Shown piece after piece: positions 20,393 to 51,014 of a stretch of DNA of 64,000 nucleotides. The translations under genes were made by a program, and so were the position numbers. Positions within the stretch are counted from its first letter, which is position 1. Each line of letters starts with the position of its first letter. The stretch lies in IMG/VR virus record IMGVR_UViG_3300034356_001764, positions 1 to 64,000 of that record, one strand, 5' to 3'. Under the pieces are notes generated by a model, which was given only the letters and a program-made list of their open reading frames with translations, made no database searches and was not told where the DNA came from. The DNA comes from a virus.

Positions 20393-22696
20393 TTATAGGA
20401 AGATTGGCCAATCAGTATAGACGTATCCTGTTGTACTACCACCTTTCTTTTTATATTTATTTAAAAGGTATTTTTCAGCAGACTCTTTACTAAATCCTTG
20501 AGACATCAATTCTTTTAATTCTTCTCCCATTGTTGCTTGTTTTGCTCCTGGATCAACTTGTTTATCAGTAGGAGTATATTCTACACGTCCCCCAACACCT
20601 GGTCTAGTTTGATAGTTAGGATACATTTGATTCAATGCATCTGTCTTCATTTTATTAGTAAGTGCTGTATTGTAAGCTTGTCTCATATTTGCAGCACCCT
20701 GTCTTTTAGCATTTTCAAACTGTTGATTAGCAATAACATTTTTGTCATAAACTCTATTAGCCATTTGCTGATTCATCTGGTTCTCTTGGTTTCTTACACC
20801 AACTTGATTTGCTTCAAACTGATTAGCAATGTTTACATTCTGATTGTTAATTCTACCAAGTGTATCTGCTGCTGCTCTAGCTCCTTGACCTTGTATCTGA
20901 GATAACCTTGCATTCAATGCTTGAGGACCTGCAAATGAAGCAGCTGCTTGAGATGCAATATTAGCTTGTTCAGATTGTGCAGCTAGTTCTCTTGTAGGAT
21001 CTAAGAATGTAGGTCTTGGTTCTTCAAGATCAACTCTTGCTTCCCATGGCATAAATTTCTTAGCACTCATCATATCACCAAATGCACCCATAGTATTTAC
21101 AGTATCTTGTAACCACCATTCTGGTTCTCTTTGCGCTGCTGGAGTAACTGCTTGTTGTTCTTCACCTGGTTCTTCACAATCTTTACAACTACCATCAGCA
21201 TTCATACCTGGATCATATGTAGTACCATCTGCTCTATCGCATTCACATCTTTCTTTTGGCTTACATGTTTCAGGCATACATTCACCTTTCTCATTCTTCT
21301 GAGCAAACTTTCCTGCAATAGCTACACCTTTATCATCAAGACACGGACATTCTGTTGATACTGGTTCTTTTTTTACTTCTTCTATTGGTTTTACAGGATC
21401 TAATTGTCTTACACCAAAATAATTATCTACATAGGCATCTTGCAATTGTTCTAGTATTTTAGGATCTTTTAATTGTTCTTCAGTAAATTTACCTGACCCA
21501 TCTTTACTCAATGCTTTTAATTTTGCATTCTTCATACCTTTAGCTGTAAGACCATGCGTTGTCCACATATTCTTAATACTTTCAGGATTGTTTTTTAAAG
21601 TCCACTCATAAATAGCTTTTTGTGCTTGACCTTCTGTCATTTTACCAATACCTGGAATACTACTTTCCCATTGCTTTAAATAATCATTTAAAGATTGTTT
21701 ACGTGCACTAAACTTATTTGATGTACCAGTTGGAGTTACATTTCCTTGTTGTGTTTTTGCTTGTTCATAAGGTGTTATAATTCCATCTTGTGCTTGTGGT
21801 ATATAACCTCCATAAGCCATTTCATTTGACTCATAAGGAAATTCAAAGCCTCCCATTGACATTCCATACATTGCCATTGGTTGACCACCATAAGCCATAG
21901 GAGGTTGTTGTTGCATCATTTCCTGAGCAGCCATATCTTGCTCCATAGATTGAGGTTGAGCTATCTGTTCCCCGTTTGGCATTTCCATTGGTATCTCTTC
22001 CATACCTTGCATTTCAGGAGATTCCCTCATTTCTTGCTGTGGCATCTGCTGTTGTGGTTGTGGTTTTTGTGGTATTAAGTCTTCTTCAGAAATTCCATTA
22101 GACTCCATATAAGGTTTTGACAATTCAGGTATACCTTGAGGAAATCCTTTCTTAGACTCTTGAGCTAATGCTAAGGCACCAAGTTTCATGGTGTAATTCT
22201 TAATCATCATCTCAGCAGTCTTTCTATCCATCTTATCTGAATTAGGATCTTGAAGTATTTTTCTATACCTGTTAAGATCATATTTCTTAGATAAGTCAGC
22301 CGGAGTGTATCCACCTTTCTTAGGATTAGCATTAAACATTTTTAGAATAGTTGGGTCTGAAATCTTCATTGACTTAGTATCACTAAAAATAAAACTATCA
22401 TCTGGTAAGTTTAATGGAACACCTCCACTACTGTGACGTGGGCCAGTAATTGTAAAAAATGATGGCATCATACTACCATCAATATTTCCTATTACAGTTT
22501 CTCCACCTTCAGCTTCTAGATTAGCTTCTTCTCTTGGAACTGCAGATATTGTTCTTTTTACCTCAGATGGTTGCTCACCAATATATGCATTGTAATCAGC
22601 ACCACCAAATGCTGGTACATCATTAACCAAACCGCCTCTAACTTGATAGCCTGTTCTAGCTTTTGGTACAGATTTAATTCTTACTCTTCTTAACAT
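20393..22696 (-). CDS. Virion cargo protein (767 aa) with N-terminal EAEGGE...GPRHSSGGV domain and Gln/Ala/Asn-rich C-terminal coiled coil
   Basis: EANLEAEGGETV...ITGPRHSSGGVPLNLPDDSFIFSD motif; pilot/ejection-like QNA-rich C-terminus; MAYGG motifs. Confidence 0.65.
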   Translation of the reverse strand: MLRRVRIKSVPKARTGYQVRGGLVNDVPAFGGADYNAYIGEQPSEVKRTISAVPREEANLEAEGGETVIGNIDGSMMPSFFTITGPRHSSGGVPLNLPDDSFIFSDTKSMKISDPTILKMFNANPKKGGYTPADLSKKYDLNRYRKILQDPNSDKMDRKTAEMMIKNYTMKLGALALAQESKKGFPQGIPELSKPYMESNGISEEDLIPQKPQPQQQMPQQEMRESPEMQGMEEIPMEMPNGEQIAQPQSMEQDMAAQEMMQQQPPMAYGGQPMAMYGMSMGGFEFPYESNEMAYGGYIPQAQDGIITPYEQAKTQQGNVTPTGTSNKFSARKQSLNDYLKQWESSIPGIGKMTEGQAQKAIYEWTLKNNPESIKNMWTTHGLTAKGMKNAKLKALSKDGSGKFTEEQLKDPKILEQLQDAYVDNYFGVRQLDPVKPIEEVKKEPVSTECPCLDDKGVAIAGKFAQKNEKGECMPETCKPKERCECDRADGTTYDPGMNADGSCKDCEEPGEEQQAVTPAAQREPEWWLQDTVNTMGAFGDMMSAKKFMPWEARVDLEEPRPTFLDPTRELAAQSEQANIASQAAASFAGPQALNARLSQIQGQGARAAADTLGRINNQNVNIANQFEANQVGVRNQENQMNQQMANRVYDKNVIANQQFENAKRQGAANMRQAYNTALTNKMKTDALNQMYPNYQTRPGVGGRVEYTPTDKQVDPGAKQATMGEELKELMSQGFSKESAEKYLLNKYKKKGGSTTGYVYTDWPIFL

Positions 22697-22704
22697 AGCT
22701 TAAA

Positions 22705-25700
22705 TTATAAATATTCAACTTCTCCACCATTAGCAATAAAGTTTGCTAATTCTTCTTCTGTCATATCAACTTCATCCCCTTCTACATAGTCAGGATCTTC
22801 ATTAAGATAACTATTTTGACCACCCATTTGTGCAGATCTACTATTCCAAGTTTGACCCATTTGATCTGGTCTATACAAACCAGTATTGGTATCATAGTCA
22901 CCACGGTCTCTACTAGGATCACTTGCATATAGATTATCAGCAGTAAGATTTTTATACATTTCTTTCTCGTTCTTTCTATTCTGCATTCTATCAATAAATC
23001 CTAAAGCTCCTTTAGCAGCTGCATTACCTGTTAACAATGCACCTTGTACTGAAGCATTGTTCATCCCAGCTTTAGTTTTAAAGTCATATGTTACATCACC
23101 TTCTGGCTCATAAACTTTTTGAGTTTGCTGTCTTAAAGCTTGATTTGGATCTATAGTATATTGTTTTGGATCTTGTGATTGATTTCTTGTAGGATTATCA
23201 ACATTCATGAAACTTGTTAAAGATGATTCATCTAAACCTTGAATACCAGGGTTAAGAGATAACATATCAACATCTGTAGTTCCTGCCATTGCTGGATTAT
23301 TAGTATATACTACTGGAGATTGAACACCATTCTGAGCAGTAGGTATAAACTTTCTTAGACCACCACCATATTGTTTCTTTATTCCTTTTTGATTAGTTAC
23401 ATATTGATTGTAGATTCTATCATATGTTTCAATGTCTTTAAGATTACTAAAATCAGGAACTACCCCTACCTCTTTTGCAAAAGCCATCCTAGCTTCATTT
23501 GCAGGTATATTCCATTTCTTAGCCCAATCACTAACAAACTGATTTACTTTTGAAGACTTATCACTAATTTTATTAAAAGCATCTTCACTCTCATACCAAT
23601 CACCATCTTTCCATATTCCTTCATTCTCAGGAACTGCTCCTGTTTTTTGAGAATCAGATTCTAAATTTGGCATTTGTTTATATCCCCATGGACTTTTTTG
23701 AAGTTGTTGATTTATCATTAGCTCTTCTGGAGATACAAGAAGGTTATTTAATTTATTACTTTGTTTAGGAGCTGTATCATAGTTAGCTTGACTATCAAAA
23801 TCTTCTTGTGTAGCAGGCACCTCTTCAAAATATTTTTCATATCTTTTACCAGCCATCAACGGTCTTTGTCTTCCTGCTTGTCTATCACCTCTATCCATTT
23901 CTCTTTGAGATAAAGCCATAGGACCTTTTCCAGGTAGTACTCTTTGTTCATCAGAACCATCTAAACTAATCATTGGTTTAGTTGGATCAGAGCTTTCATT
24001 ACTAAAAGTAACTGAATACTTCTTAGGTCTTCCGCTTAATAAACCTGTTTTTTGAACATTGATATTTTTAATCTGTGCATTTTGTCCAAGATAACCAGGA
24101 ATCTGTTGTCCAGTAGCATCACGTGCACCCATATATTGAGTACGGTAATTTGTATTTAAATTGGCAGGAATTAAGTTTTTAAACAAACCTCCTCTTTGAA
24201 AGTAAGCATCTGTTACATCTTCTGAGCCTGTGTAATCAATATCAGACTGGTCAATATAAGCAAGTGATGGATCATCATTTCCTCCATAAACAAATCTTTG
24301 AAGATTACCATACTCATCAGAAAAAGGATCTTGTACAATACCACCCTGTTGGAAAGTTGAACCGCCAAATTTATTTTCTATCATGTCACCACCAAAACCA
24401 TCATTCCAGCTTTCTTCACTTTCCTTACCAGATCTATTTGGTAATTCATTCCAAGGAACATAAATTACACCACCATAATCTTGTGATTGTTCAACAGCAG
24501 CAAAACTTTTTTCAGGAATTATTTTGCCGTTAGCATCTCTTACAATCTGATATCTTGCAGGTTTTACTGTCCCCCAATTTGTTTTATATGTAGATTCAAA
24601 TGAAGTAGCTTGTTCACCTTTTTTAGTGTTCCATTGTTTTTCATCACTACCTTCTTCAAATTTTCCAGTATTAGGATTAAATCCATAGTTTTTACTACCT
24701 ACAGGTCTTCCCCATTGGTCTTTTTTAACTTGAGGAACTGTTGGTTTTACTTTAGCTTTTGGCTGAATGTAGGGTATAGCATTTTTTTCTAATGCATTTA
24801 CTCTACCTTCTACATCTCCAGAAGAAACTTTTTGAAATGAATTTCCTGTACCAGTTGTATCAATGTACCACTGATTATTTTCTTTCTTGTAAATTGCAGT
24901 CTTACTTGGATATGAGTAAACACCATCTGCACGTTTCTGAACATTAACTTCTTTTTGACCTTTTACTTGATCTTTAACAACTTGTTTTTCTTTTGCTGTT
25001 TGAGAACTATTTACAGTAACCGGAGTTTCAGTTCCAGGAGTTTTAACTTCAGTAGTTGCAACTGTTTCTGTTGTACCATCTGGTTTTACTTCAACTTTTT
25101 CCTCAACCTTAACATCTTTATTAGTTGCCTCATTACCTGGGGTAACAGCAGCTACATCTTTATTAGTTTGACTATTTACATAAACAGCATTATCTTCTAC
25201 AATTTTTCTTGCAGGAGTCTTTTTAGCACCAGTATAACCATAACCATAGAAACCTGGTCCACTACCTGGCATACCACTACCTGGCATAACAGATGGCATT
25301 TGCCCAAAGTTAACTGAGTATTCTTTTGGTCTACCAAATATACCTGAACGTCTTACATCCATAGATTCTATTGGTGGATAACCTTGACCAAAGCCTCCTG
25401 GTATTCTTGGAACTCTTGGTTCTCTATTGAACAAACCTCTTCTTTCTTGACCCTCTTGATTTCTTCTTCTAAATAATCCACCAAACTGAGCTTCATCAAG
25501 CATCTCATCATCTTCAGAATAATTCATTGGAGCTTGAGACATCCCCTGTTGCATCATTTGTTGTTGCTGCATCATTTGATCATACTGTTGTTCAGCTTGT
25601 TCTTTAGCAACAGCTATCTGACTTTGATTCTTAAGAGTTCCAATGTAATTATCTAAGATACCTCTTCTTACATTATTTCCAATTGGATCAGATTGATCTG

Positions 25701-26646
25701 CTTTTTTGGTAAGGTCATTAGGATTATTATTTCCTTGATCCCCACCCATTTGTTTTTTAACTAACTTCAATACAGAATTTACATAAGCACTCTTACCTTT
25801 TTTGTAAGCACCACCTTTTCTAAATTCACTCTCATCATAGTTTTCTTCTTGTGGTTCTGAATCATCCATATCCATCATTGGAGAAGAGTCAGGATTCATA
25901 TTGCCATATGAAACACCACTATCTTGTGAAGTTTCAGGTGCAGTAAACTCTGGTCTTTGCCAAGCTTCTCCAGTTGCTACATCATAACCTCCACTCATCA
26001 TGTCAGACATGTTTGCAGGCAAGTATGCTTCAATTCCTGGAAATACAATTGGATACTGACTTTCTACTTCCGCACCTTCTTGTGCTCTCATGTAGCCACC
26101 TCTCATCATTACTACTTGAGAAGCAACATCAGAATCATCATCTTCTATTTCATCATCTTCATTAGCAACTTCATTTGCCATATCATTATTCATGTCATCA
26201 CCATAGAAGTCTTCTTCAGTTTCTTGAACCGGATTCATTACTGTTTCTTCCTGAGCATCTTCTGGATCTCCTCCTGTAACTTCTTCATCTGATGATTCTT
26301 CAGAATCTTCTTCTTTCTGAGCTTCTGATTGTTCTTCAAGATACGTGTATATCTGATTTACCAAGTTAGTTGCTTCCATTGGATCTTTACCATACACATT
26401 CACCAACTTAACAACTATCTCTTCTTTTGGTCTTGAGTTACTAATGTCTTGCATTACTAATGACGCAAGCTGATTATCATCAACTTGTTGTGCTTGTCCA
26501 GCTTGCCCTTGACCAGCACCCGGATATGATAATTCTTCTGCACTAGGTGTACCACCCATTTGAGCTTTACGTAAAAACTGGGCAGTCTTATTTAAAAACT
26601 GTCCTTCACCTGTTGGGCTCTTATAGATTCTGACTCTTTTTTTCAT
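22705..26646 (-). CDS. Low-complexity virion cargo protein (1313 aa) with many xQxGG motifs
   Basis: Long ORF with acidic and Gln/Met-rich tracts and about 11 di-glycine motifs; shares modules with the upstream gene. Confidence 0.65.
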   Translation of the reverse strand: MKKRVRIYKSPTGEGQFLNKTAQFLRKAQMGGTPSAEELSYPGAGQGQAGQAQQVDDNQLASLVMQDISNSRPKEEIVVKLVNVYGKDPMEATNLVNQIYTYLEEQSEAQKEEDSEESSDEEVTGGDPEDAQEETVMNPVQETEEDFYGDDMNNDMANEVANEDDEIEDDDSDVASQVVMMRGGYMRAQEGAEVESQYPIVFPGIEAYLPANMSDMMSGGYDVATGEAWQRPEFTAPETSQDSGVSYGNMNPDSSPMMDMDDSEPQEENYDESEFRKGGAYKKGKSAYVNSVLKLVKKQMGGDQGNNNPNDLTKKADQSDPIGNNVRRGILDNYIGTLKNQSQIAVAKEQAEQQYDQMMQQQQMMQQGMSQAPMNYSEDDEMLDEAQFGGLFRRRNQEGQERRGLFNREPRVPRIPGGFGQGYPPIESMDVRRSGIFGRPKEYSVNFGQMPSVMPGSGMPGSGPGFYGYGYTGAKKTPARKIVEDNAVYVNSQTNKDVAAVTPGNEATNKDVKVEEKVEVKPDGTTETVATTEVKTPGTETPVTVNSSQTAKEKQVVKDQVKGQKEVNVQKRADGVYSYPSKTAIYKKENNQWYIDTTGTGNSFQKVSSGDVEGRVNALEKNAIPYIQPKAKVKPTVPQVKKDQWGRPVGSKNYGFNPNTGKFEEGSDEKQWNTKKGEQATSFESTYKTNWGTVKPARYQIVRDANGKIIPEKSFAAVEQSQDYGGVIYVPWNELPNRSGKESEESWNDGFGGDMIENKFGGSTFQQGGIVQDPFSDEYGNLQRFVYGGNDDPSLAYIDQSDIDYTGSEDVTDAYFQRGGLFKNLIPANLNTNYRTQYMGARDATGQQIPGYLGQNAQIKNINVQKTGLLSGRPKKYSVTFSNESSDPTKPMISLDGSDEQRVLPGKGPMALSQREMDRGDRQAGRQRPLMAGKRYEKYFEEVPATQEDFDSQANYDTAPKQSNKLNNLLVSPEELMINQQLQKSPWGYKQMPNLESDSQKTGAVPENEGIWKDGDWYESEDAFNKISDKSSKVNQFVSDWAKKWNIPANEARMAFAKEVGVVPDFSNLKDIETYDRIYNQYVTNQKGIKKQYGGGLRKFIPTAQNGVQSPVVYTNNPAMAGTTDVDMLSLNPGIQGLDESSLTSFMNVDNPTRNQSQDPKQYTIDPNQALRQQTQKVYEPEGDVTYDFKTKAGMNNASVQGALLTGNAAAKGALGFIDRMQNRKNEKEMYKNLTADNLYASDPSRDRGDYDTNTGLYRPDQMGQTWNSRSAQMGGQNSYLNEDPDYVEGDEVDMTEEELANFIANGGEVEYL

Positions 26647-26702: not shown

Positions 26703-29700
26703 TTAGTCAATTTCTTCAATTACATAACCATCTTTAATATATCTATTAATCTCTGCTTGTGTAAGATTTGCTACCATCCCTCCTTCTTTAGCTTTAACTG
26801 CACCCTTTACTAAGGCTTTAGTTCTACTTCCAGACGGATCTTTTATAGGAACATATGTATTACCTGTTGATTTCCCGGTGTTAATATACCATTTACCATT
26901 TGAATCTTTCTTATAAGTTACTCCAGGTCTTTCAGGATATTTATAAACTGTACTTTGGAGTGTAACTTTCTTAGTATAATCAGGTGCTACAAATGGCTTC
27001 AACTTATTTGCATCTTTGTATGGATTATAAACAGCAGTAGACTCAGTAGGTACAAGTTTTGAATAAGCAAAATTTGGATTACTCTTTTCATACTCAGCTT
27101 GTTTTTTATTTTTTTCTGCTATGTCTTTACGAACCTGTTCTCTTTGAGCATCCTCACTAGCTTTTTCTCTTGCTGTAATTCCTTTTTGTACTATACTATA
27201 TTCTTTTTGTAATTGATTAGTTGAACTTGTATTACCTATTATTTCATTAGCTTGCTTCAATACATTATTACTATAATCTATATCAAAGTTATTAATATAT
27301 TTTTGATACTTCTCTCTCTTATACCAATCAGAACCTGCTTGCCAAGACTTAGCTAAAATATAAGATGCAGGTATCTTTCCTTTGTATAGACCAGTCTTAA
27401 CATTAAAGTCTTTATCTTTTTTAAGTTTTTCATAATTGTCCAAAAGAATAATTGCACCCGCTTTAGTCTGTGCTTCAATATCAAATGTTCCAATATCTTT
27501 AGGATCAACTCCAAGTTTTTCTAACTTTTTACCAAGGGCATTTAATGAACCATCTTTATTTACAAAGTTTAAAGTAGGTTTCATTTGATAATAACCAATA
27601 CTTGCTTCATCTCCTTCAAAGGCTCCTTGACCAAGAACATCTTTATAAACAGTAGCTGCAACTTGTTTAGGAATTCTTTTATTTGATTCACCACCTGAAC
27701 TTTCATTCTGCATGATTCCACCTACAAGGATCTGTCCTACAAAGTTTGTATCCTCTTGACTATAACCTAGATTTTTAATGTTTCTAACATTGTTATTAAT
27801 AACACCTGTTGCTTGTTTTTGACGCTCAGTTGCTGTTTTACCTGCTACTAGTTTTAGTTTAGGATCAACTGTGCTATAATATCCTGTGTTCTGTAATCCA
27901 GATAAGTCAGCATTTTTAAGACTTGGGGATCTTACAATAGATGCAACTTGATAAGTAAATACACTTTTGTCATGATCATCAAGACTTATTGGCTCATCAA
28001 GTCTTTTGATAAAAGCTTTTCCTTTTTCAGAAGCATGCCAAATTAGTGGCGTACCATCTTTATCTTTACCAACTACAAATCCAAGGTGCTCAACATTTTC
28101 ATTTTCTAAACCACCTTTTGTTTCTGAAGCAAACTCTCCACTTGTTTTTGTATTCATTCTATTGAGCTGTACATAATCACCAACTTGTAATTTTGCATAA
28201 ACATCTTTAGGAACCTTTGGCATCTTAGCCATATCTCTTTCTGTAGTTTCATAAATAAGATCTCCACCTTTATTAAGAACATCAGATTTATTAAACCAAG
28301 CATCATTTGCCCATATATCTCCATCAGCTATTTCACCAAGTAAGTTACTCATCTTAACACTTACATTGAATGAACATCCTTTACCTTCAACACAAACTTC
28401 TTCTCCTTCCCCTTTATCAAGATATGGTAAGTAACCTACTCCAAGATTTTTGTTAACCGTATACTTAGTACTTTGTGATTGTTTTTTTGGTTCAATTGTT
28501 TTTACCTTAGATGGAGGAATACCAGAATTAAATGCATCTAATGCCATCTTTGTTCTGTTACCCATAATACCATCAACTCCATCTCTACTTGGACCTGAAG
28601 CTCCAATGTTATATCCAGCTGCTACTAGTTTCTTTTGAATTGCTTTAACATCACCTGATTGTTCAATCTTTGGCATTGCTATTTTCTCTACTTCTTTCTT
28701 AGTAAGTGTTGGTTGATCTACTACTGGAGTGTTCACTAGGGTAGCTGGTTGCTGAACTGTTGTAGCTACCACAGGTTCAGTAACAACTGGAGGTGCAACA
28801 AGATCACCTGTAGGCATCATATCAGGTGCTAACATAGGAGTCACAACCGGACTCTGACTTTGTTGCATAGTTGGAACAGTTGGTACACCACCATCTTGAA
28901 ACTTAACTTCCTCTATAGTAAACCCACCTTTTCTATAGTACTCTATTTCTTCATCATCAAGATCTAGTTCAATAAAACCACCATCTTCTTCTTGTTGTAA
29001 AGCTTTACCTCCTAATGATTTAGTAGATTTTTTAGGAAGCATTTCATAAATACCTTTCTCATTTTGTTTAGCTAAACCTTGTCTTTCTAAACTTTGCCAT
29101 GTGTTTCTTCCTGGAGCTACTCCATTATTTTCAACAAAGGCACCCCATGATCTAACTTTATTTCCTTCTGGTAATGATTCATTTAACTGCTTATAAACTT
29201 CTGTTCCTATACCTTGTCTTTGAAATTTAGGATCAACTCCTATATCCAATGTTTCAAAATCACCACTGGATAATCTATTACCTGAAACTTCACCAACTTT
29301 TGTATCTCCTTTATAAACCCCAAAAGTCTCCATGTCTAATTCTTGAGATCTTACATTATCAGGTAAAAGTTTTATATTCATATTTTTAGGTGCACTTGTA
29401 ATTTTTTTACTAGTTCCAAGTACATCTTCTGCGTAAGAGCCTACTTTACCAAATTTACCAACTTTACCTAACTTACCCAATGAACCAATTCCTGGTAACA
29501 CACCTGCTACATCTAATGTTTTATCTAACCCTGACCAATATTGATTTCCTGTAAGAGGATTTATATTAGTATTTCCTGTACCAAATGCAGAACCTATTCC
29601 TGGATTAGCAGACAGTGCAACATCAGCAACTGTATTACCTACTCCTTTAAGTGTACCCATGGGATCTTTTGCAATACGCAATAATGCTGGAGCTCCAGTT

Positions 29701-31976
29701 AATTCTAGCACTGCATCAGTAACTCCCATATTAGCTTCTTTTCTAGTATTAGCTTGATCTACTGCATCCTGATATTGGCCTTTATAACCTTCCTTCATTG
29801 TAGCTTGGTCATACTTACCCCAACCTCTTTCATCATACAGTCTGGCAAAGTCAGAAGTTGATATCTTACCTTCTTGAACCTTTCTTCTAGCACGTTCATA
29901 ATCTTGAGCTCCTTGATTATGTTCTTTAACTCCTTGTGTAAATCTTTGAAGTTCTTTTATAGAAAAGTCTTTAGGTTTTAAATCTTGATACCAAAGCTTT
30001 CTACCTTGAGCAGTATTCATAAGAGCTTTACTCTTATCCATTAACTCTTTCCAGCGTTCTTTATCTGAAGCTTTTGCATAAGCAAATGTTTCCGCTTCAT
30101 CTTGAGATTTATCTATAATGGGTTGTTGTGAACCTTCTTGAGCTTGAGGTAGTTCTTCTACTATATAACCACCTTTTCTATACTGTTCAATTTCTTGAGG
30201 AGTTAAATCCATTTCAACATACCCACCATCTTCTTGCATGGCCATCTTGTCATTAACTCCGTATGCCCATCTTTTATATGCAGTGCGGCCTTCTCTTAAT
30301 GGAAGACTTGGTATTTCTTCACCACCTTTTTGTGCATGCACTAATCCTTGACCACCACATTTATGACATGTAGTAACATCATCACTACCATCTGCAGCAT
30401 TCCATTTCCAACCACATTTTTTACAGGTTACTTTCTTAGTAAGTAAAGCACCTCCTTTTTGTTCTTTATTTAAAAAAGCTGGTGATACTGATTTATAATG
30501 TTCTGCAAAATATTGGGCATCTGCAGGATTATTAAATCTTATTGCTTCATTAGATTCTGGACCATAATCACCAAGCATTAACTGACCATTCTCATTTTGT
30601 ATTTGAGGTACAGCATAATTATCCATACTAGCCATATAGTGAGTACCTGTATTACCATTTTCAAATTGATATGGATTATCAGTAGGGACAACCATTCTTT
30701 TTGCAGCAGGATTGCCAAATTCATTTGCATAAGCAAGCTTTGCTTTCATCATACCACTTGTATAATCTTGCAAATGAGATGGTAAAGGAATATCATATTC
30801 TCCTTCTTCATTATGTGAATCTACTACAGCTTGTCCTTCTGGAGTAGTTTCTCTCCAGTTTCTATACTCATTAAGTTTATTTTGAATTAAATTATAATCA
30901 TCAAGTGTCCAACCTTTAGGATTTCCAATTTGATTTTCTATGGCTTTAATTTCTTTTCCCCATTCTTGTGGAGTTGTTGAACCACCAAATTGAAACAGTT
31001 GTCCACTAAATCCAAGTTTATCAATTACAGATTGTTTATTATCAATATGTCTATCAATACCAAGCTCTCTTACTTTAGCTACCTTAGCTTCATCTGAACC
31101 CATTGCAAAGATTCTATCTTCTGGGATACCTGCATTACGTGCCCTAGTGATCATATCTGGTGTTACTTCTTCTCTAGCAGATATAATATACTTCTGATCA
31201 CTAGGTGTATTCATTGCCATTTCCATTCCTGCATCAGTTGTAAGAGTATCATCATAGTCAAATGATACAATACCACCATCTGCGTAGAAACTTGCATTAG
31301 GATCAAAGATTTTTCTTTTTCTAGATTTAGGTACTTCAAATAAAGGATTCAATGCAAACAATCTATTTGTTGCTTCAAGACTTCTTGAATAAGCTTTTGA
31401 TTTAATTCCTTTTGATCCAGTAGGTATTCTTACTTTAGGAGTTTGCCCACCTTTCTTAAAATCTTCAGGTTGCTCAAGCTCTGGTTGAAGTCTGTAATCA
31501 GTTGTTAATTCTTCCCCAGCTTTAATATCTCTTTTTGCATAGACATATCTTTCATTACCTTTTTTAACACTATACATGTTAGGTGTGTCAGAGTGATTAT
31601 GCATCTTTCCAATCTCTCCTACTGGTTGACCATTTCTATGCGCTAAACCTATAAGTTGATTTTTTTTAAAAAAAGTATTTGCAAACAATCCTTTATCAGC
31701 TCCTGCAATTTTTGATTGTTTAACTACTAAATGACTGTTAGCTTTATTACCTCCTTTTTTTAATTCAGGATATTCATCAACATACTTAGCACCCGGAAAA
31801 TTATATTCCTCCTCTGGATGCATCATTACTGGTGAACCAAAATCTGGATAAGCCATGACAGGATATGGAACATTGTCCATGGTTATGTCATTACCTGGAA
31901 TTCTAGTTGGTACTCCAGGATGTGCCCACTGACCTCTTGGATCAACAATAATTTTAGATTTAGATTTCTTATTCAT
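26703..31976 (-). CDS. Multi-domain virion polyprotein (1757 aa): N-terminal GQWAHPG domain, SET, HAD-like, Zn ribbon, GNAT, peptidoglycan-binding, NlpC/P60-like, lysozyme/transglycosylase-like
   Basis: SET: KGLFA...HNHSDTPN...AKRDIKAGEELTTDY. HAD: SFDYDDTL...ISAR...HIDN. Zn ribbon: CKKC...CHKC. GNAT: VDPKFQRQGIGTEVY. PG-binding: VKAIQKKLVAAGY...VDGIMGNRTKMAL. Also GCSFNV...HLGFV...IWHAS and MQNESSGG...SIGYYQMK. Confidence 0.8.
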   Translation of the reverse strand: MNKKSKSKIIVDPRGQWAHPGVPTRIPGNDITMDNVPYPVMAYPDFGSPVMMHPEEEYNFPGAKYVDEYPELKKGGNKANSHLVVKQSKIAGADKGLFANTFFKKNQLIGLAHRNGQPVGEIGKMHNHSDTPNMYSVKKGNERYVYAKRDIKAGEELTTDYRLQPELEQPEDFKKGGQTPKVRIPTGSKGIKSKAYSRSLEATNRLFALNPLFEVPKSRKRKIFDPNASFYADGGIVSFDYDDTLTTDAGMEMAMNTPSDQKYIISAREEVTPDMITRARNAGIPEDRIFAMGSDEAKVAKVRELGIDRHIDNKQSVIDKLGFSGQLFQFGGSTTPQEWGKEIKAIENQIGNPKGWTLDDYNLIQNKLNEYRNWRETTPEGQAVVDSHNEEGEYDIPLPSHLQDYTSGMMKAKLAYANEFGNPAAKRMVVPTDNPYQFENGNTGTHYMASMDNYAVPQIQNENGQLMLGDYGPESNEAIRFNNPADAQYFAEHYKSVSPAFLNKEQKGGALLTKKVTCKKCGWKWNAADGSDDVTTCHKCGGQGLVHAQKGGEEIPSLPLREGRTAYKRWAYGVNDKMAMQEDGGYVEMDLTPQEIEQYRKGGYIVEELPQAQEGSQQPIIDKSQDEAETFAYAKASDKERWKELMDKSKALMNTAQGRKLWYQDLKPKDFSIKELQRFTQGVKEHNQGAQDYERARRKVQEGKISTSDFARLYDERGWGKYDQATMKEGYKGQYQDAVDQANTRKEANMGVTDAVLELTGAPALLRIAKDPMGTLKGVGNTVADVALSANPGIGSAFGTGNTNINPLTGNQYWSGLDKTLDVAGVLPGIGSLGKLGKVGKFGKVGSYAEDVLGTSKKITSAPKNMNIKLLPDNVRSQELDMETFGVYKGDTKVGEVSGNRLSSGDFETLDIGVDPKFQRQGIGTEVYKQLNESLPEGNKVRSWGAFVENNGVAPGRNTWQSLERQGLAKQNEKGIYEMLPKKSTKSLGGKALQQEEDGGFIELDLDDEEIEYYRKGGFTIEEVKFQDGGVPTVPTMQQSQSPVVTPMLAPDMMPTGDLVAPPVVTEPVVATTVQQPATLVNTPVVDQPTLTKKEVEKIAMPKIEQSGDVKAIQKKLVAAGYNIGASGPSRDGVDGIMGNRTKMALDAFNSGIPPSKVKTIEPKKQSQSTKYTVNKNLGVGYLPYLDKGEGEEVCVEGKGCSFNVSVKMSNLLGEIADGDIWANDAWFNKSDVLNKGGDLIYETTERDMAKMPKVPKDVYAKLQVGDYVQLNRMNTKTSGEFASETKGGLENENVEHLGFVVGKDKDGTPLIWHASEKGKAFIKRLDEPISLDDHDKSVFTYQVASIVRSPSLKNADLSGLQNTGYYSTVDPKLKLVAGKTATERQKQATGVINNNVRNIKNLGYSQEDTNFVGQILVGGIMQNESSGGESNKRIPKQVAATVYKDVLGQGAFEGDEASIGYYQMKPTLNFVNKDGSLNALGKKLEKLGVDPKDIGTFDIEAQTKAGAIILLDNYEKLKKDKDFNVKTGLYKGKIPASYILAKSWQAGSDWYKREKYQKYINNFDIDYSNNVLKQANEIIGNTSSTNQLQKEYSIVQKGITAREKASEDAQREQVRKDIAEKNKKQAEYEKSNPNFAYSKLVPTESTAVYNPYKDANKLKPFVAPDYTKKVTLQSTVYKYPERPGVTYKKDSNGKWYINTGKSTGNTYVPIKDPSGSRTKALVKGAVKAKEGGMVANLTQAEINRYIKDGYVIEEID

Positions 31977-40554: not shown

Positions 40555-40560
40555 AATATT

Positions 40561-42267: not shown

Positions 42268-42281
42268 ACTTCTACTGTTAT

Positions 42282-42294
42282 TATAATATACAAA
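42282..42294 (-). promoter_or_regulatory. Putative late promoter motif TTTGTATATTATA
   Basis: Identical 13-mer at 55073-55085. Confidence 0.5.
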
Positions 42295-42300
42295 TTATTA

Positions 42301-44097: not shown

Positions 44098-44103
44098 TGC
44101 TTT

Positions 44104-44343: not shown

Positions 44344-44364
44344 AATTTATTGGTTTTTAATTAG

Positions 44365-44931
44365 TTAACAATTTGTACAAGTCATCTTATTCAAAAGCTT
44401 AAGGGCATAATTATATAAGCTCATTCCCTTTTGAGGCTCATGACAAAATTCTACTTTAGATATTGCAGCATCAAGATACATCTTTATGAAACGCAACTCT
44501 TCAAGTTTTTGTTTTATTATTAATGGTGGATCACATGCATTTGCATCAACACTACAAAGTACATTGTAATATTTATTCATTGCTTGTGTGATTCTCATAT
44601 GGTTATACTCTACATATACTTGGTCATTAGGAGATACACTGTATTTGATTATGTAAATCCCATCTGGAATATCCACATACTGTGTACCACAATTTGTAGT
44701 TTGTAGTTGTAAATCACATGCTGTTAAAGTAATATGTCCACTATTAACAAAATCAGTCATTACAGCTCCCTCAATCTGATTTGAATAGCCAAATCCTGGT
44801 ACTGTTATATTAAGAGTAGGACAAGTAACTGGGATTAAAGGATTCACTGCATAAACACTTGTATCAAAAATCTTTAATACACATGAGTTCATTACAAAAG
44901 GAACCTCTAAGCTTAAGACATGATTTGCCAT
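44365..44931 (-). CDS. Putative structural protein (tail hub-like)
   Basis: LKIFDTSVY...IPDGIYIIKYSV Ig-like N-terminal part plus helical C-terminus; located in the structural module. Confidence 0.5.
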   Translation of the reverse strand: MANHVLSLEVPFVMNSCVLKIFDTSVYAVNPLIPVTCPTLNITVPGFGYSNQIEGAVMTDFVNSGHITLTACDLQLQTTNCGTQYVDIPDGIYIIKYSVSPNDQVYVEYNHMRITQAMNKYYNVLCSVDANACDPPLIIKQKLEELRFIKMYLDAAISKVEFCHEPQKGMSLYNYALKLLNKMTCTNC

Positions 44932-44941
44932 AATTTTATAT

Positions 44942-44980
44942 TAAAAAAAGGGGAGGAGTATGAAACTCAGCTCCCCTTTC
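44942..44980 (-). terminator. Intrinsic terminator after the auxiliary capsid gene
   Basis: AAAGGGGAG...CTCCCCTTTTTTT hairpin plus U-tract on the minus strand. Confidence 0.75.
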
Positions 44981-45016
44981 TAGTTATTAATTAGAATTAA
45001 TTAAATACCTAAGACA

Positions 45017-46711
45017 TTATAATTGTCCACCTGGACGTGGACCTGGTCTAAAACCTCTTGGAGGTAGTGGAGGAAATATAATTGGAACAATACATTCTGT
45101 TTCACATGTAAAGTTATCAAATTCACAAACACCACATGCAGTTAACCATTCAGTAGTAACATCATTAAACTCAGACAGACCAGTATTATCTGTTGCAACA
45201 ACTTGCAATAAGTATTGATCATTATCAAATGTACTTGATGGGTTGTTGAAACGTGGAACACTATGTTGTAAACATGATTGGAAGTACAAACCATTACGGT
45301 TAATTGAAGCAATGATTTGGTTTCCTTGAGTAATTTCACGGATACGTAAATCAGAATGTAAGAAGTTTTGTCTGTATGCTTCTGACAATGTTAAGTCACG
45401 TACAATTGTTTCACCAAGTCCATTAGCTTGAGTACCTAAACACTCATGAACTACACAAATTCCATCAAATGTACATGGATCACCATTTAAGTCAACCTCT
45501 GATGCATAAAGTTTAACTGGTTCAACTTCATAGAAGTCAGTTAATTGGAATGTACAATCACCAAACTTAGTATCAACATAAGCACCATTTAATATCATAC
45601 CTGCACATGCACCATCAATATATCCTGGAGATACATAGTTATCCCAAGTATCACCACCTAAAGCAACTAAGTCAGCAGCAGAAGTTCCTGGAGCATACCA
45701 AAGAACACCAGTCTGATCTTGTACAATAATTTGTACAAAAGGATTTACTACTGGGTAACGTAAGATTGCATCAGCCCATTTGATAAATACTTCAGTTGAG
45801 TCAACCGGAGTTGGTGCAATTGAACCTTCTGGACAACATCCTGTATATGCATCAGCAATATAGTATGCATTGTGATTCAAGTAACGTAAAGCAGGAGAAC
45901 CTTTGATATCAATACGTAATGAGTAAGTCTCACCACATAAGAATTCTTTACAACATGAAACACCACCTGAACCTGTAATTGGATCTACATTAGCTGTAGT
46001 AACGTCAGTTACAGTAATTTCTGCAAGACCATCACCACCACCTGTAAGAGTAATTACATCAGCAGGAGGAATACCAGAACCATCACTATATCCTTTTCCA
46101 GGATTAATAATTGTAACAGATGTAACTGCGCCACCCACTCCAGTGCCACTTATTTGAACTACAATTCCAATACCAGCTCCTGTAGTAGTTGTTGCTGTAA
46201 TAACTTCACCTAATACATATCCAGAACCATCATTAGCAGGAACTACAGCAGCAGCAAGTACACCACCACCTGCAGTCCAGAATGTAGAACCAACATGAAG
46301 TACTTCATTTTGAGGTTCACATGGATCTACTGTGTAGAAACGTGATACATACTTAGGATTGATCATCTTAGACTTGTTAGTCTCAGTGTATCCACCATGG
46401 AAAGGACCAATTTTGTCATTAGTATAAATTGCAGAACCTGCAAGTATTACATTACAACAATTGTCAGGAATAACTGACAAGTTAGTTTTTGGATTAAAAT
46501 ATCCAATATACCCACTGTAGAAAGCACCAAAAATATTTTCTGCTTGAGCAGATAATGAATTTAATGCATAAGTTGGTAAACCAGTAGTAGTTAAAAATCC
46601 ATCAACTGTAACTGCTGGAGCAACTGTGCCATCAAGCAAAGTTACAGTTGTTGTTAAAGACTCTCCTGTTGCAAGGAATGTCTTTCTAAACGCGTGATTA
46701 AAATAAGCCAT
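45017..46711 (-). CDS. Putative auxiliary capsid / major structural protein (crAss gene 74-like)
   Basis: CGETYSLRIDIKGSPALR motif; has its own upstream promoter motif and downstream terminator; GSGY...NPGKGY beta insert. Confidence 0.55.
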   Translation of the reverse strand: MAYFNHAFRKTFLATGESLTTTVTLLDGTVAPAVTVDGFLTTTGLPTYALNSLSAQAENIFGAFYSGYIGYFNPKTNLSVIPDNCCNVILAGSAIYTNDKIGPFHGGYTETNKSKMINPKYVSRFYTVDPCEPQNEVLHVGSTFWTAGGGVLAAAVVPANDGSGYVLGEVITATTTTGAGIGIVVQISGTGVGGAVTSVTIINPGKGYSDGSGIPPADVITLTGGGDGLAEITVTDVTTANVDPITGSGGVSCCKEFLCGETYSLRIDIKGSPALRYLNHNAYYIADAYTGCCPEGSIAPTPVDSTEVFIKWADAILRYPVVNPFVQIIVQDQTGVLWYAPGTSAADLVALGGDTWDNYVSPGYIDGACAGMILNGAYVDTKFGDCTFQLTDFYEVEPVKLYASEVDLNGDPCTFDGICVVHECLGTQANGLGETIVRDLTLSEAYRQNFLHSDLRIREITQGNQIIASINRNGLYFQSCLQHSVPRFNNPSSTFDNDQYLLQVVATDNTGLSEFNDVTTEWLTACGVCEFDNFTCETECIVPIIFPPLPPRGFRPGPRPGGQL

Positions 46712-47287: not shown

Positions 47288-47292
47288 TATTT

Positions 47293-47991: not shown

Positions 47992-47994
47992 ATC

Positions 47995-48219
47995 TTAGTT
48001 TCCTTTTCTTGCTTTAGCCATTGCTTTAAAAGTTTTGGCTAATGCTTTACGTTTTGGTGTACAAGTTGGTTTTGACATGGGAGTGCAAAAACCTTTATGT
48101 TTTGGATTAACAGCATCCTGTATCCAGTTCTTATCTTTTACAGCACCACCTTTTTTATACTGGTTTGTTCCACGGTTTGTCTTAATTATTTGACTAAGAC
48201 TAGTATCTCCAGTTGCCAT
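47995..48219 (-). CDS. Small basic protein (WIQ.A...KRKALAKTFKAM family), paralog 1
   Basis: Lys-rich; YKKGG motif; near-duplicate of 49348-49497. Confidence 0.7.
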   Translation of the reverse strand: MATGDTSLSQIIKTNRGTNQYKKGGAVKDKNWIQDAVNPKHKGFCTPMSKPTCTPKRKALAKTFKAMAKARKGN

Positions 48220-48221
48220 AA

Positions 48222-48566
48222 CTATTTCTTTTTAAGGGAACCGCCTAGTTTTTTAATAACTCCACGGCCTTTAAGAATATCAGCTTTAGTAACTTTACCA
48301 TCTTTGTTTAAATCTGGAAAACCACCTTTAGCCATTTTACGTGCCATTACACATCTTCCATTTTCATCTCTAACCATACCACCTTTACAAGAAGATTGTA
48401 CTGCACGGTTAGGAGCAAATGCTACTGACCCACCTTTTTTAAGCATGCGTCCTTCATCAGTACGTGGGTTATTACCATACTTAGGCATTCCAACAATTTC
48501 TGCTGATCCACCTTTTTGCATTTTCTTCATTTTTGTGGTACCCCCACATTGCATACATTTTGCCAT
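48222..48566 (-). CDS. Small basic protein with repeated xxxGG motifs and an EF-hand-like DLNKDGKVTKAD loop
   Basis: Six GG motifs in 114 aa; DxNxDGxxxxxD. Confidence 0.7.
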   Translation of the reverse strand: MAKCMQCGGTTKMKKMQKGGSAEIVGMPKYGNNPRTDEGRMLKKGGSVAFAPNRAVQSSCKGGMVRDENGRCVMARKMAKGGFPDLNKDGKVTKADILKGRGVIKKLGGSLKKK

Positions 48567-48578
48567 GATATATAGTTT

Positions 48579-49046
48579 TTAACAATTCCATTTTTTTAGT
48601 GAAAGAGCCTTTCTTGTAGGTCTTCCTTTTTCATCCTTCATAGGCCCAGGCATTCCTGACATTCTAGCACAGAAACTCTTACGTCTCTTAGCATCTTTGC
48701 TTCCAGCTTTAAGCTTTGAAGGTTTAGTAGTTACAGCTGTCTTAAGTTTACTACCAGGATTAGCTGCTCTATAGCTTGCTACACCTTTAGCATTAAGACC
48801 TCCTGTAGGATTCTTACCTTCTTTCCTTGTCCAAGCGGCTGTGCTTCCACCATTTTTCATGGCTTTACCTTTGTATGTAGATTGTCTATCAAAACCTGGA
48901 TCATTTTTTATTCCTCTAGATTGATATGAATTAGGGGGTGTATAATTAAAACCTGGATCATTTTTTTTTTGTTGTTTAAATGTTTTACCCATTTGATTTT
49001 TTAGTAACCAATCAATTTTTCTTGTCCAAGCTGCAGTCTTTGCCAT
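48579..49046 (-). CDS. Small basic phage protein (DUF6321-like)
   Basis: AWTRKEGKNPTGGLNAKG...RRKSFCARM...ALSLKKWNC. Confidence 0.65.
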   Translation of the reverse strand: MAKTAAWTRKIDWLLKNQMGKTFKQQKKNDPGFNYTPPNSYQSRGIKNDPGFDRQSTYKGKAMKNGGSTAAWTRKEGKNPTGGLNAKGVASYRAANPGSKLKTAVTTKPSKLKAGSKDAKRRKSFCARMSGMPGPMKDEKGRPTRKALSLKKWNC

Positions 49047-49060
49047 TATTCAATATTTTA

Positions 49061-49345
49061 TTATTGCTTCTCTTTAAGCTTTTTAACCCCAAAGTAAACT
49101 CCGGTTCCTGCAGCTCCTGCTCCAAGAATACCACCTACTACACCAGCACCTTTTTCTTTAAAGTTACTCCAAGCTCTAGCTCTCTTATTCTTTTTCTGGG
49201 CACGGTTAAAATTACATCCTCCGCGTTGCGCTTCAGGTAGTGAATTCATATTACCTATCATGGCTCCGTTACTAGCTTTCTTTAATTGAGCTTCTTTAAC
49301 ATTATTAAAATGTGTAAGCGGATTTACTTTCTTTACTGCTTTCAT
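49061..49345 (-). CDS. Small basic protein with C-terminal Gly/Ala-rich hydrophobic segment
   Basis: AQRGG motif; GAGVVGGILGAGAAGTGVYFGV. Confidence 0.65.
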   Translation of the reverse strand: MKAVKKVNPLTHFNNVKEAQLKKASNGAMIGNMNSLPEAQRGGCNFNRAQKKNKRARAWSNFKEKGAGVVGGILGAGAAGTGVYFGVKKLKEKQ

Positions 49346-49347
49346 AA

Positions 49348-49497
49348 TTATCTTTTTTTTGCCATTGCTTTAAAAGTTTTGGCTAATGCTTTACGCTTTG
49401 GTGTACAAGTAGGTTTAGACATTGGAGTACAGTAACCTTTGTGTTTAGGATTTACTGCTTTTTGAATCCATTTGTCATCCTTCTTTTTAGTTGCCAT
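49348..49497 (-). CDS. 49-aa basic protein, paralog 2 (not in ORF track)
   Basis: MATKKKDDKWIQKAVNPKHKGYCTPMSKPTCTPKRKALAKTFKAMAKKR fills the gap between its neighbours with 2-nt spacers. Confidence 0.8.
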   Translation of the reverse strand: MATKKKDDKWIQKAVNPKHKGYCTPMSKPTCTPKRKALAKTFKAMAKKR

Positions 49498-49499
49498 AA

Positions 49500-49838
49500 C
49501 TATACTTTTTTAACTCTTCTTCCCATACCTACTCTAGACTTCTCAGCTTTTTTAGCAATTAGTTTAGAAGGTGTAATTTCACTCTTTGTTTTAGGTGTAT
49601 CTTTAGATACTCTTCTTGTAGGCCGGCAGTATTCATTTTTACCACCGGCTCCACAAGCTTTACCTGATTTTGTATCTTGCCATTTTTCTGCTTGCCATCT
49701 TTTTAAGTTTGTTCCTTCTTTAGTCTTTCTTACTGTACCTGAACCTTTACGGCATTTGGCAATAGCCTGAGAAGCTCTAGCTGAAGGAAACACAGCATAC
49801 TGTGCTTTTACTTTACTATAACAAGCATCTTTAGGCAT
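49500..49838 (-). CDS. Small basic phage protein (DUF5872-like)
   Basis: DACYSKVK...FPSARASQAIAKCRK...LKRWQAEKWQD...YCRP...VSKDTPKT. Confidence 0.65.
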   Translation of the reverse strand: MPKDACYSKVKAQYAVFPSARASQAIAKCRKGSGTVRKTKEGTNLKRWQAEKWQDTKSGKACGAGGKNEYCRPTRRVSKDTPKTKSEITPSKLIAKKAEKSRVGMGRRVKKV

Positions 49839-49841
49839 AAT

Positions 49842-51014
49842 TTATTTCTTTTTCATTCTCATCATTCCACCCATTTTAGCTTTAGGTGTAGCTGTTTTAG
49901 GAGCTGCACTAGTACCACCAGTACGTCCTTTAGCAACATTAGATGCAGCAGCTTTTGGATTTACTCCAGACTTAACACCTTTTGATCCTGCAACAGTTTG
50001 TTTTTTAACTGTAGCATTAGGATTTACCATACCACCAGTCTTATAACCTAAAATAGTTTTAGCAGCTGATTTTACTCCATCATAAAAAGATCCTTTTTTT
50101 GTGTAATTAGGATATCTTTTTTCAATAGCATCATCAACTTTTTTTGCTCCTGATCCAATAGCTTTATATGCTTTGTATTCAGGAGTAGCTTTAACTGCTG
50201 CTTTAACTACCTTCTTAGTATTTTTAGCAGAGTCTGTTACACCTTTACTAACACCTTTTGCTACTTGCTTAACACCAGCTTTTACATCTGACATTGCTCC
50301 ACCTTTTTGCATTTTTAGACCAGAACCTTGTTTCTTTGCATAACGCATAGTTGCATTAGTTTCTCTTTTAGCTTGTCTTTTTTCTTTAGGTGTCATTGGT
50401 GCATCAGTCATTCTAGTTGAGAATGGTGTTGGTCCACCTTTTTGAGCCATCATTGGTCTTGCCATTGGTCTGTCCGGACCTGTCATTCTAATTTTACTAT
50501 CAATGTATCCTCTTGTTGAATTTTTTTTAATAGTTCCTTTTGTAGTTTTTACACCACCTTTTTGAAATTCACCAGGAGCACTAGAACCACTTGTTTTATC
50601 TTTAACAGCTTTTACTATGTCAGCTGCAGAACCTGCAGTTTTAGCTACATTGCCTGTAATAGTTGCTGCTTTTTCATAGGCAGTAGGTTCAGTACCAGCT
50701 TTAATACGGTCTGTCTTTGCAGTTATCTTTGCAAGCTTTTGATCTTGCTTTGCAGATTTTTTGATATCCTTAAAAGAAGCACCACCATCTTGGTATTTAG
50801 CTTTAGTAGTACCACCATATTTCATTTTACCTGATGCTTCCATTTTTGCTTTTTCTTCAGCAGCTTTTTTAGCTTTACGTCTATTTGAAATATTCTTTCC
50901 AATACCAGCAGCACCTGCAGCAGCAGCACTAATACCAGCAATGATTTGACTTGCTTTAGCACCTTTTGATCCTTTTACCTCAGACCCAGTCTGATATTTT
51001 TTCATTGTTTTCAT
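49842..51014 (-). CDS. Lys/Ala/Gly-rich basic protein (390 aa) punctuated by xQxGG motifs; candidate DNA-condensing core polyprotein
   Basis: Histone-H1-like composition; MKYGG, YQDGG, FQKGG, AQKGG, MQKGG, YKTGG, AKMGG. Confidence 0.7.
   Translation of the reverse strand: MKTMKKYQTGSEVKGSKGAKASQIIAGISAAAAGAAGIGKNISNRRKAKKAAEEKAKMEASGKMKYGGTTKAKYQDGGASFKDIKKSAKQDQKLAKITAKTDRIKAGTEPTAYEKAATITGNVAKTAGSAADIVKAVKDKTSGSSAPGEFQKGGVKTTKGTIKKNSTRGYIDSKIRMTGPDRPMARPMMAQKGGPTPFSTRMTDAPMTPKEKRQAKRETNATMRYAKKQGSGLKMQKGGAMSDVKAGVKQVAKGVSKGVTDSAKNTKKVVKAAVKATPEYKAYKAIGSGAKKVDDAIEKRYPNYTKKGSFYDGVKSAAKTILGYKTGGMVNPNATVKKQTVAGSKGVKSGVNPKAAASNVAKGRTGGTSAAPKTATPKAKMGGMMRMKKK

Follow-up and report, generated by a model that had tools for sequence, protein, structure and literature searches.

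A recurrent Gly-Gly motif at the module seams of cargo proteins in a crAss-like phage

The presumed cargo proteins of a marine crAss-like phage, most likely packaged in the virion and injected, and encoded in the 64,000-nucleotide stretch of DNA analysed here (hereafter the window; positions 1 to 64,000 of the IMG/VR virus record IMGVR_UViG_3300034356_001764, part of an 80,203-bp viral contig with an estimated completeness of 68%), carry a junction motif that is real and undescribed, literature searches having found no description of it. Each module of these proteins, be it an enzyme domain, a Zn ribbon, a basic module or a leader, ends in [F/Y/M/A]-[Q/K/A/R]-x-G-G, and alignments with related phages indicate that the cassettes so defined are shuffled, fused and split exactly at the Gly-Gly (GG). 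The motif is concentrated in three proteins, which we call cargo A (1757 amino acids, aa), cargo B (1313 aa) and cargo C (767 aa), and in a cluster of seven small Lys-rich proteins. By analogy with the head proteases of other phages, the seam may be the processing site of a protease of so far unrecognised kind; we give this leading reading a probability of about 0.45, with an uncut docking handle as its closest competitor.

A motif confined to cargo and small basic proteins

Motif copies were counted with the pattern of the preliminary description, [AFYMLK][QKAR].GG, and compared with 400 residue shuffles of each protein group. Cargo A (26703..31976), a polyvalent protein, contains nine copies where 1.4 are expected, cargo B (22705..26646), of low complexity and rich in Gln, Met and Glu, eight against 0.7, and the seven Lys-rich genes (47995..51014, read from the list of open reading frames, ORFs, and encoding 74, 114, 155, 94, 49, 112 and 390 aa) fifteen against 2.0; in each of these three groups, 0 of 400 shuffles were as high. 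Cargo C (20393..22696) contains three against 0.5, a count that 4 of 400 shuffles reached. All of these genes lie on the minus strand, as do all long genes of the window. Taken together the cargo and Lys-rich proteins hold 35 copies against 4.6 expected (about 8-fold), in line with the roughly 35-40 first counted by eye. All other window proteins (14,879 aa; the proteins of 3652, 2131, 996 and 1843 aa together with ten tail and five head gene products) contain none where shuffling predicts 4.3, so that the earlier remark that the motif is not repeated in TerL, portal, major capsid protein (MCP), tail proteins or the 996- and 2131-aa proteins holds. GG by itself shows a mild excess only (for example 18 where 11.2 are expected), and the signal therefore lies in the residues that precede the glycines. 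A compositional artefact was rejected, given a context motif about 8-fold up in cargo and absent elsewhere with plain GG only mildly up. A sister motif, AQxG(G), recurs in the cargo proteins, with AQxG present five times in cargo B against 0.5 expected.

Across the cargo proteins of the window and 11 IMG/VR relatives, the position three residues before the first glycine (−3) carries 0.58 bit of information and is dominated by F, Y, M and H, position −2 carries 0.39 bit (Q/K/A/R) and position −1 carries 0.38 bit (Y/M/K), a residue pattern that was not found in the neighbouring non-cargo proteins of the same set. The residue after the GG (+1) favours Y, F, V and L; there is little residue specificity past the GG, as with proteases that read the non-prime side only. 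In its behaviour the motif is closer to a recognition element than to an ordinary flexible linker.

This context is kept across the family. A profile of the cargo C N-terminal domain matches 1719 representatives of 50%-identity clusters, with E values below 1e-30 for 1078. Outside the conserved domain, 146 of the best 150 representatives contain the counted pattern 342 times against 74±6 expected (4.6-fold), and aromatic-xxGG 412 times against 98. When eight cargo C orthologues are aligned, the GG motifs hold their columns within gap-rich, diverging low-complexity sequence. In the relatives G004 (119,985 bp) and G005 (109,874 bp), both complete genomes with terminal repeats, the motif lies almost wholly in the cargo genes past the muzzle-position gene and in small basic genes, the latter following the MCP gene or sitting within the tail-gene block.

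Cassettes, terminal signatures and genomic setting

From its N terminus, cargo A comprises a leader, a SET domain, a basic segment, a HAD-like part, a domain of no assigned type and a Zn ribbon, followed by a 25-aa module, a GNAT domain, a second 25-aa module, a muralytic part with PG-binding and SLT-like segments, and a C-terminal 25-aa module. The motifs reported to bracket these domains, LKKGG (72-76), FKKGG (173-177), YADGG (231-235), FQFGG (328-332), EQKGG (505-509), AQKGG (548-552), FQDGG (1026-1030) and AKEGG (1729-1733), are all at the residues given. The domain calls fared unevenly: Pfam supports SET (115-161) as well as GNAT (882-950), the muralytic region yields a weak PG_binding match (1107-1149, E 0.001, 19.6 bits, under the 23-bit cut-off), the HAD call comes down to DYDDT and the Zn ribbon to CxxC pairs. 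In an AlphaFold2 (AF2) model of residues 60-345, built on a shallow alignment, the SET domain alone is confident, with a predicted local distance difference test score (pLDDT) of 77-90; the flanks with LKKGG, FKKGG and YADGG are below 50, and the HAD-like part is a motif-based assignment.

BLASTP comparison of cargo A with its relatives finds the modules in varied orders and combinations. The local alignments end at residues 76, 177, 237, 499-508, 551-553, 584-586, 999 and 1031-1034, which are GG positions, and when all cargo proteins are pooled, a GG is found within five residues of 31% of the homology breakpoints but of only 11% of positions drawn at random. The proposed placement of the motif at the domain borders of the 1757-aa protein is thus borne out, the ends of homology clustering at GG. 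YADGG (31272..31286, minus strand) is one such swap point: in alignment A6 its two glycines (G175 and G176) never vary, and past them no similarity is left, each relative continuing with a different module, such as a HAD-like part, the 25-aa module or a Zn ribbon. The Zn-ribbon cassette between EQKGG and AQKGG (30321..30464, minus strand), defined by its joints in relatives, opens with ALLTKKVTC directly past the GG in four of four upstream contexts and ends in HAQxGG in three of four contexts and in HAQRG-I in the fourth, with different sequence downstream. Because the joints are exact at the GG and divergence sets in after it, the motif belongs to the upstream cassette, which consists of a body plus hydrophobic-x-x-GG.

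Conserved signatures also mark the termini. Cargo B, cargo C and some split genes begin with a basic strand and LPxA[QRK]xG; in cargo B this N-terminal signature ends in AQMGG and the C-terminal module in GGEVEYL, and both are conserved in relatives. Most cargo A and B proteins end in the module of about 25 aa, built of GG, a strand, a D-L-T-x-x-E-I-x-x-Y helix, GG and an acidic strand, which a regular expression matches 27 times in the window and its relatives (about 25 clear copies, mostly C-terminal) and whose profile gave no significant match in the PDB or Pfam. An internal copy followed by LPQAQEG (30132..30233, minus strand) corresponds to one cargo protein's C-terminal module running straight into the signature that opens the next, and since internal junctions have this form, cargo A resembles an end-to-end fusion of once separate cargo proteins. 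Fused forms of the cargo C family carry hydrophobic-xxGG at the site of the stand-alone N terminus. Past its last GG the cargo C family (P0001-P0150; window 20393-20440, minus strand) has a strongly conserved hydrophobic tail, for example GG-x-Y-V-x-G-x-x-x-F-P-F-M-F-Y; the C terminus of ΦcrAss001 gp45 is similar (AKGGKVRTKKKK...), and the small basic proteins terminate in GG plus a short KKK tail.

The Lys-rich cluster carries DUF6321 and DUF5872 (Pfam), a WIQxAVNPKHKG module, an EF-hand-like module and many xxGG. According to the ORF list, the WIQxAVNPKHKG module is leaderless in the 49-aa gene (49348-49497, minus strand) and preceded in the 74-aa gene (47995..48219, minus strand) by a 25-aa leader ending in YKKGG; elsewhere it stands alone in G004 and is flanked in G005 by KFKKGG and KEMGG, within cargo B. 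An EF-hand-/dockerin-like segment (FPDLNKDGKVTKADILKGRG) sits between two GGs of the 114-aa protein (48222-48566, minus strand) and recurs in a 426-aa protein of G004 (44919-46199). Lys makes up 17-19% of the proteins of this cluster and about 2% of the tail-region proteins (39871-46711, minus strand). A 161-aa ORF antisense to the Lys-rich genes (48097-48582, plus strand) most likely arises from their composition rather than being a gene.

The crAss-like identity of the phage comes from its head genes (Pfam, PHROGs), all on the minus strand: the MCP gene (52135-53751) has a Pfam Crass_capsid match, and the portal (55143-57893) and TerL (57899-60103) genes have crass-type PHROG matches. The MCP is only about 28% identical to the closest cultured MCPs. 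Past the tail genes, proteins of 1843, 1757, 1313, 767, 996 and 2131 aa and a truncated protein of at least 3652 aa follow in an order that mirrors gp44 to gp50 of ΦcrAss001, the 1843-aa protein being, by position, the putative muzzle. In ΦcrAss001, gp44 is the muzzle, gp45 and gp46 are cargo, and gp47 to gp50 are cargo related to RNA polymerase (RNAP) (PMC10172136). The 767-, 1313- and 996-aa proteins and the 390-aa Lys-rich protein have no Pfam or PHROGs match, and tblastn found no match to the 1757-aa protein in cultured phages. The truncated giant protein (window 2-10957, minus strand) is depleted in GG (6 observed against 13.8 expected) and has a weak match to 2OG-Fe(II) oxygenases (AlkB-like) at 3512-3619.

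Cargo C consists of a disordered leader (residues 1-41) with two GG, a conserved domain (about 45-200) and the conserved tail past the last GG. Its AF2 model has a mean pLDDT of 82.5, about 40 in residues 1-41 and above 90 in the domain, where the in-domain GG forms a hairpin turn (EAEGGE, between strands 60-62 and 67-70). VIA-align ranks chain 7qog_M, which is gp45 425-551 of ΦcrAss001, second of 48,161 chains, with a Z of 5.1 that is not decisive; the match is a weak one, with a root-mean-square deviation of 5.2 Å over 96 of 126 residues and 19% identity. Foldseek found no match to the model in the PDB; at the sequence level, comparison with gp45 gave a BLASTP E above 2 and an hhalign probability of 0.2, phmmer and profile searches gave no PDB hit, and Pfam gave none either, PF25725 (crAss_CARG1) included. 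The Atlas neighbour clusters of cargo C do include crAss_CARG1 (PF25725), with a score of 0.93, which we take as a lead only. Like cargo C, gp45 (PDB 7QOG, 7QOI, 7QOJ, 7QOL, 8CKB) is encoded downstream of the muzzle-position gene and upstream of giant RNAP-related genes. On the strength of the model and gene order, cargo C probably corresponds to crassvirus cargo protein 1 (C1). Its N-terminal domain has a conserved His, Ser and Asp, all within 20 residues of each other; a role for this domain as reader of the GG or as protease is unsupported, and it resembles the portal-bound C1 domain.

Processing site, docking handle or turn

On the processing reading, the motif would be the C-terminal seam of the cassettes that form the crassvirus cargo (ejected) proteins and the recognition site of a lineage-specific factor, read on the non-prime side. 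The factor would most likely be the unrecognised protease, cutting the cargo polyproteins, either within the procapsid or once they are ejected, and trimming off leaders at the N terminus and short tails at the C terminus. The parallel would be T4, whose gp21 belongs to a family of proteases that cut after Glu in short motifs; it cuts after L/I-x-E, frees the internal proteins and removes a capsid-targeting sequence. Only some copies would be cut, the GGs in the 25-aa module and in folded domains probably being structural turns. The broader proposal, that the Crassvirales process their injected cargo as polyproteins through a Gly-Gly-specific protease of phage or host, cutting after [F/Y/M]-[Q/K/A]-x-G-G, is advanced a little more tentatively.

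The strongest argument for this reading, made by analogy, comes from a module that the window shares with T4-like phages. The 155-aa Lys-rich protein (48579-49046, minus strand) carries DUF6321 (Pfam), and in the ORF list MKNGG (48846..48860, minus strand) stands directly before this module (STAAWTRKEGKN), at the start of homology. The heptad TAAWTRK occurs both after the start Met and after MKNGG-S, as though a piece of about 60 aa had been inserted. At least 541 records of cultured marine phages, most of them T4-like cyanophages, contain DUF6321, as do more than 7600 longer fused proteins, which match cyanomyovirus structural proteins (contigs typed by tblastn). Stand-alone versions begin right after Met, as in the pelagiphage HTVC034P, in G004 and at the window protein's own N terminus. 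In the best 120 fused proteins, 114 DUF6321 instances follow hydrophobic-x-Glu, for example FMNE·AS or FLNE·T (the dot marks the junction); hydrophobic-x-Glu-[AS] occurs 360 times in the fused proteins against 123 expected, and aromatic-xxGG is depleted (5 against 30). The junction peptide is thus lineage-specific and the module shared, because DUF6321 follows Met, hydrophobic-x-Glu or MKNGG according to lineage. Cyanophage S-P4 encodes such a fused protein together with a gp21-type Peptidase_S77 (PF03420), and in phage SPN3US gp245 cuts cargo after AXE (PMC10052503). The cyanophage junction would fit a head protease, and the new element is that the same basic modules appear to be joined by hydrophobic-x-Glu in cyanophages with a gp21-type protease and by xxGG here, which favours processing. 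The window module is about 90% identical to the cyanophage-type fusions, with homology starting exactly at TAAWTRK; such identity between crass-like and T4-like cyanophage copies suggests a recent exchange of small cargo modules between unrelated phage lineages.

Several observations weigh against processing, the first being the outcome of the protease searches. PF00770, searched at E up to 1 in crAss001, the window contig, G002, G004 and G005, matched nothing, in agreement with the earlier statement that the window has no adenain-like protease. Searches that covered relatives rather than the window contig found no match to PF02902 (C48) at E up to 1 in G001 to G005 and none to C39 (PF03412) in five relatives, two of them complete. 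S77 (PF03420) had no match in G000, G004 and G005, and searches of the window, the complete relatives or both failed to detect S78, C5 and Prok-JAB, the last of which has a single match, under the cut-off, in crAss001. A very divergent clan CE enzyme could escape these profile searches. The only peptidase-like genes are one for a DUF2201_N/PhageMetallopep-VWA protein and an unsupported HExxH. The former, a putative zinc peptidase with a VWA-like part (G004:105862-107160, beside a MoxR-type AAA ATPase in the early/replication region), was the sole non-lysis peptidase-like hit when 62 non-structural G004 ORFs were scanned with Pfam; G002, G004 and G005 all have it (L043-L045), whereas the window contig lacks that part of the genome. 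The latter, HEAWH at residue 807 of the truncated 3652-aa protein (8525..8539, minus strand; regular-expression match), is the only peptidase-like signature in the window; HExxH also occurs, again by regular expression and with no Pfam support, in the cargo of three relatives. The search beyond the window that the preliminary description called for thus detects none of the families named above in the complete relatives, and its only non-lysis peptidase-like find is the DUF2201_N-VWA gene. A further candidate, the 423-aa gene between portal and MCP (53781..55052, minus strand), was rejected as a protease, its product being charged, helical-looking and scaffold-like. Homologues at E up to 1e-5 number 6466, with about 75% identity or more among the 120 listed, and of the named Atlas clusters the nearest are those of scaffolding proteins, with scores no better than chance. 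Such conservation is unusual for a scaffold-like protein and suggests a clade common in metagenomes; the clade of the window phage appears to be common in marine ones.

The counterpart protein of ΦcrAss001 adds to these points. The motif copies of gp45 are SAYGG 209, FAEGGG 263, KAFGG 332, AFGG 425-428 and FAYGG 562, and its ordered segments are 214-245 and 425-552 (PMC10172136). A425-F-G-G428 lies inside the modelled chain 425-551 of the electron cryomicroscopy structure, in continuous density, and this copy is therefore uncut; the published model has gp45 as one chain spanning the portal (PMC10172136). Neither the ΦcrAss001 structure paper (PMC10172136) nor the 2023 review of the Crassvirales mentions a protease or proteolysis, and the 2018 supplement on crAss001 gives no band sizes for gp45. 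Within the motif itself, hydrophobic residues at +1/+2 fit a β-hairpin turn, about six of the nine cargo A motifs belong to the folded-looking 25-aa mini-module, where the GG is probably a turn, and conserved tails follow the last GG, so that indiscriminate cutting would destroy both tails and module. As the module and domain GGs are probably turns and conserved tails follow the last GG, cutting, if any, would not take place at every copy. Of the polyprotein-processing idea as originally put, the cargo-specific, recognition-like motif at module borders stands; a suitable protease was not found in the searches described above, and the AFGG of gp45 is uncut. The motif may instead be the capsid-targeting tag that was offered as the alternative.

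A docking or threading handle that stays uncut is the strongest alternative and a plausible one, though we rate it below processing. The seam and the terminal signatures (the N-terminal basic strand with LPxAQxG, and the C-terminal acidic strand after GG) would bind the portal, the ring, the capsid interior or one another; cargo would be packed into the procapsid and exit from it unfolded, in an ordered train, of which the fused polyvalent proteins would be covalent versions. In gp45, SAYGG 209 precedes the barrel-bound helix 214-245, the intact AFGG 425-428 opens the portal-bound domain and FAYGG 562 follows it. The conserved tails past the last GG, the conserved N-terminal signatures, the internal junctions composed of a C-terminal module and an N-terminal signature, and the searches that returned no protease likewise speak for docking. 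Yet a single handle per protein would be enough, whereas every small module bears one; docking also leaves unexplained the head-protease sites at the same place in the modules of T4-like phages, and both the handle and its binding partner are putative.

That the GG is a passive structural element seems unlikely. It would be a tight turn or hinge that ends a folding module, with the hydrophobic residue as the last core contact, and recombination would be tolerated there. The EAEGGE hairpin of the AF2 model, the GGs that separate strand, helix and strand in the 25-aa module, and the hydrophobic residues after the GG speak for this reading. However, domains as unrelated as SET, Zn ribbon, basic modules and leaders share the five-residue ending, Q/K at −2 included, no other multidomain virion protein of the window carries the motif, and ordinary linkers neither keep a fixed position across orthologues nor are swapped for a protease motif in another phage lineage. 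A DNA-level signal, by which a short nucleotide word at the seams would drive cassette recombination with the peptide as by-product, is very improbable and was rejected as a repeat: GGT encodes 74% of motif glycines against 56% elsewhere, but the 36 window seams (counted with the same pattern plus His at the first position) have heterogeneous codons, by which the seam is not a nucleotide repeat, and flanks that share no nucleotide word, and conservation at the amino-acid level extends across representatives of different 50%-identity clusters.

Significance and comparison with known systems

Whichever reading prevails, the five-residue seam provides a rule for parsing giant, otherwise unannotatable cargo proteins into functional units, and the termini expected at the seams (GG+1) offer a direct and cheap test of cargo processing in crassviruses. 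If the seams are cut, they are a handle toward a new protease; if uncut, they may serve as a signal for loading or threading. Crassviruses, which belong to the most abundant phages of the gut, load and deliver megadaltons of cargo protein. Were processing true, enzymes (SET, GNAT, muralytic) and small basic peptides would be released and N-terminal targeting leaders removed, and a new phage protease with its substrate code would exist in thousands of abundant marine and gut phages.

Processing at Gly-Gly is known from adenovirus, whose adenain has the consensus (M/I/L)XGG↓X, from African swine fever virus (ASFV) pS273R, and from polyubiquitin and SUMO precursors, which are cut by deubiquitinases and Ulp. 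These systems resemble the window in their repeated units ending in GG, in recognition on the non-prime side and in their core or cargo substrates. They differ in that the present genome is that of a tailed phage of a Bacteroidota-type lineage, with no clan CE or deubiquitinase-like peptidase detectable in the genomes searched and a motif known from sequence; the adenain consensus moreover has its hydrophobic residue at P4, whereas the hydrophobic or aromatic residue here is P5 (−3 from the first Gly) and P4 is Q/K/A/R. The adenain-type analogy first drawn is accordingly not upheld. Double-glycine leader systems rely on a C39 peptidase, the family for which the five relatives gave no PF03412 match.

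Cargo A is like the polyvalent proteins (Iyer et al. 2017, PMC5512222) in being predicted as a virion-delivered, shuffled assembly of unrelated effector domains (SET, GNAT, muralytic), and its architecture varies among relatives, in one of which Amidase_2 occurs. Iyer et al. mention no junction motif (neither 'linker' nor 'glycine' occurs in the text) and propose an embedded zincin-like peptidase for the processing of polyvalent proteins (PMC5512222); an embedded MPTase domain has no Pfam support in the window protein or in the cargo of relatives, where HExxH is the only trace. In ΦcrAss001 gp45, as in the cargo of the window, aromatic-xxGG copies flank ordered segments, and neither motif nor processing was described by Bayfield et al. 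2023 (PMC10172136); in the window the motif is shared by two far larger polyvalent proteins and by seven small basic ones.

A further likeness is to the internal or core proteins of T4 and the modular structural protein of cyanophages. As in the window, basic modules (DUF6321, DUF5872) are present, a fixed short junction stands before each module of the cyanophage protein, and stand-alone versions begin, after Met, at the same point of the module. In the gp21-type system the junction closes with Glu, here with Gly-Gly; the T4-like cyanophages encode Peptidase_S77, whereas the present lineage is without it, and cutting of the cyanophage protein is itself inferred. Different junctions on the same basic modules suggest a general principle, in which the cargo of phage heads would be assembled from modules whose junctions are matched to the protease or machine of each lineage.

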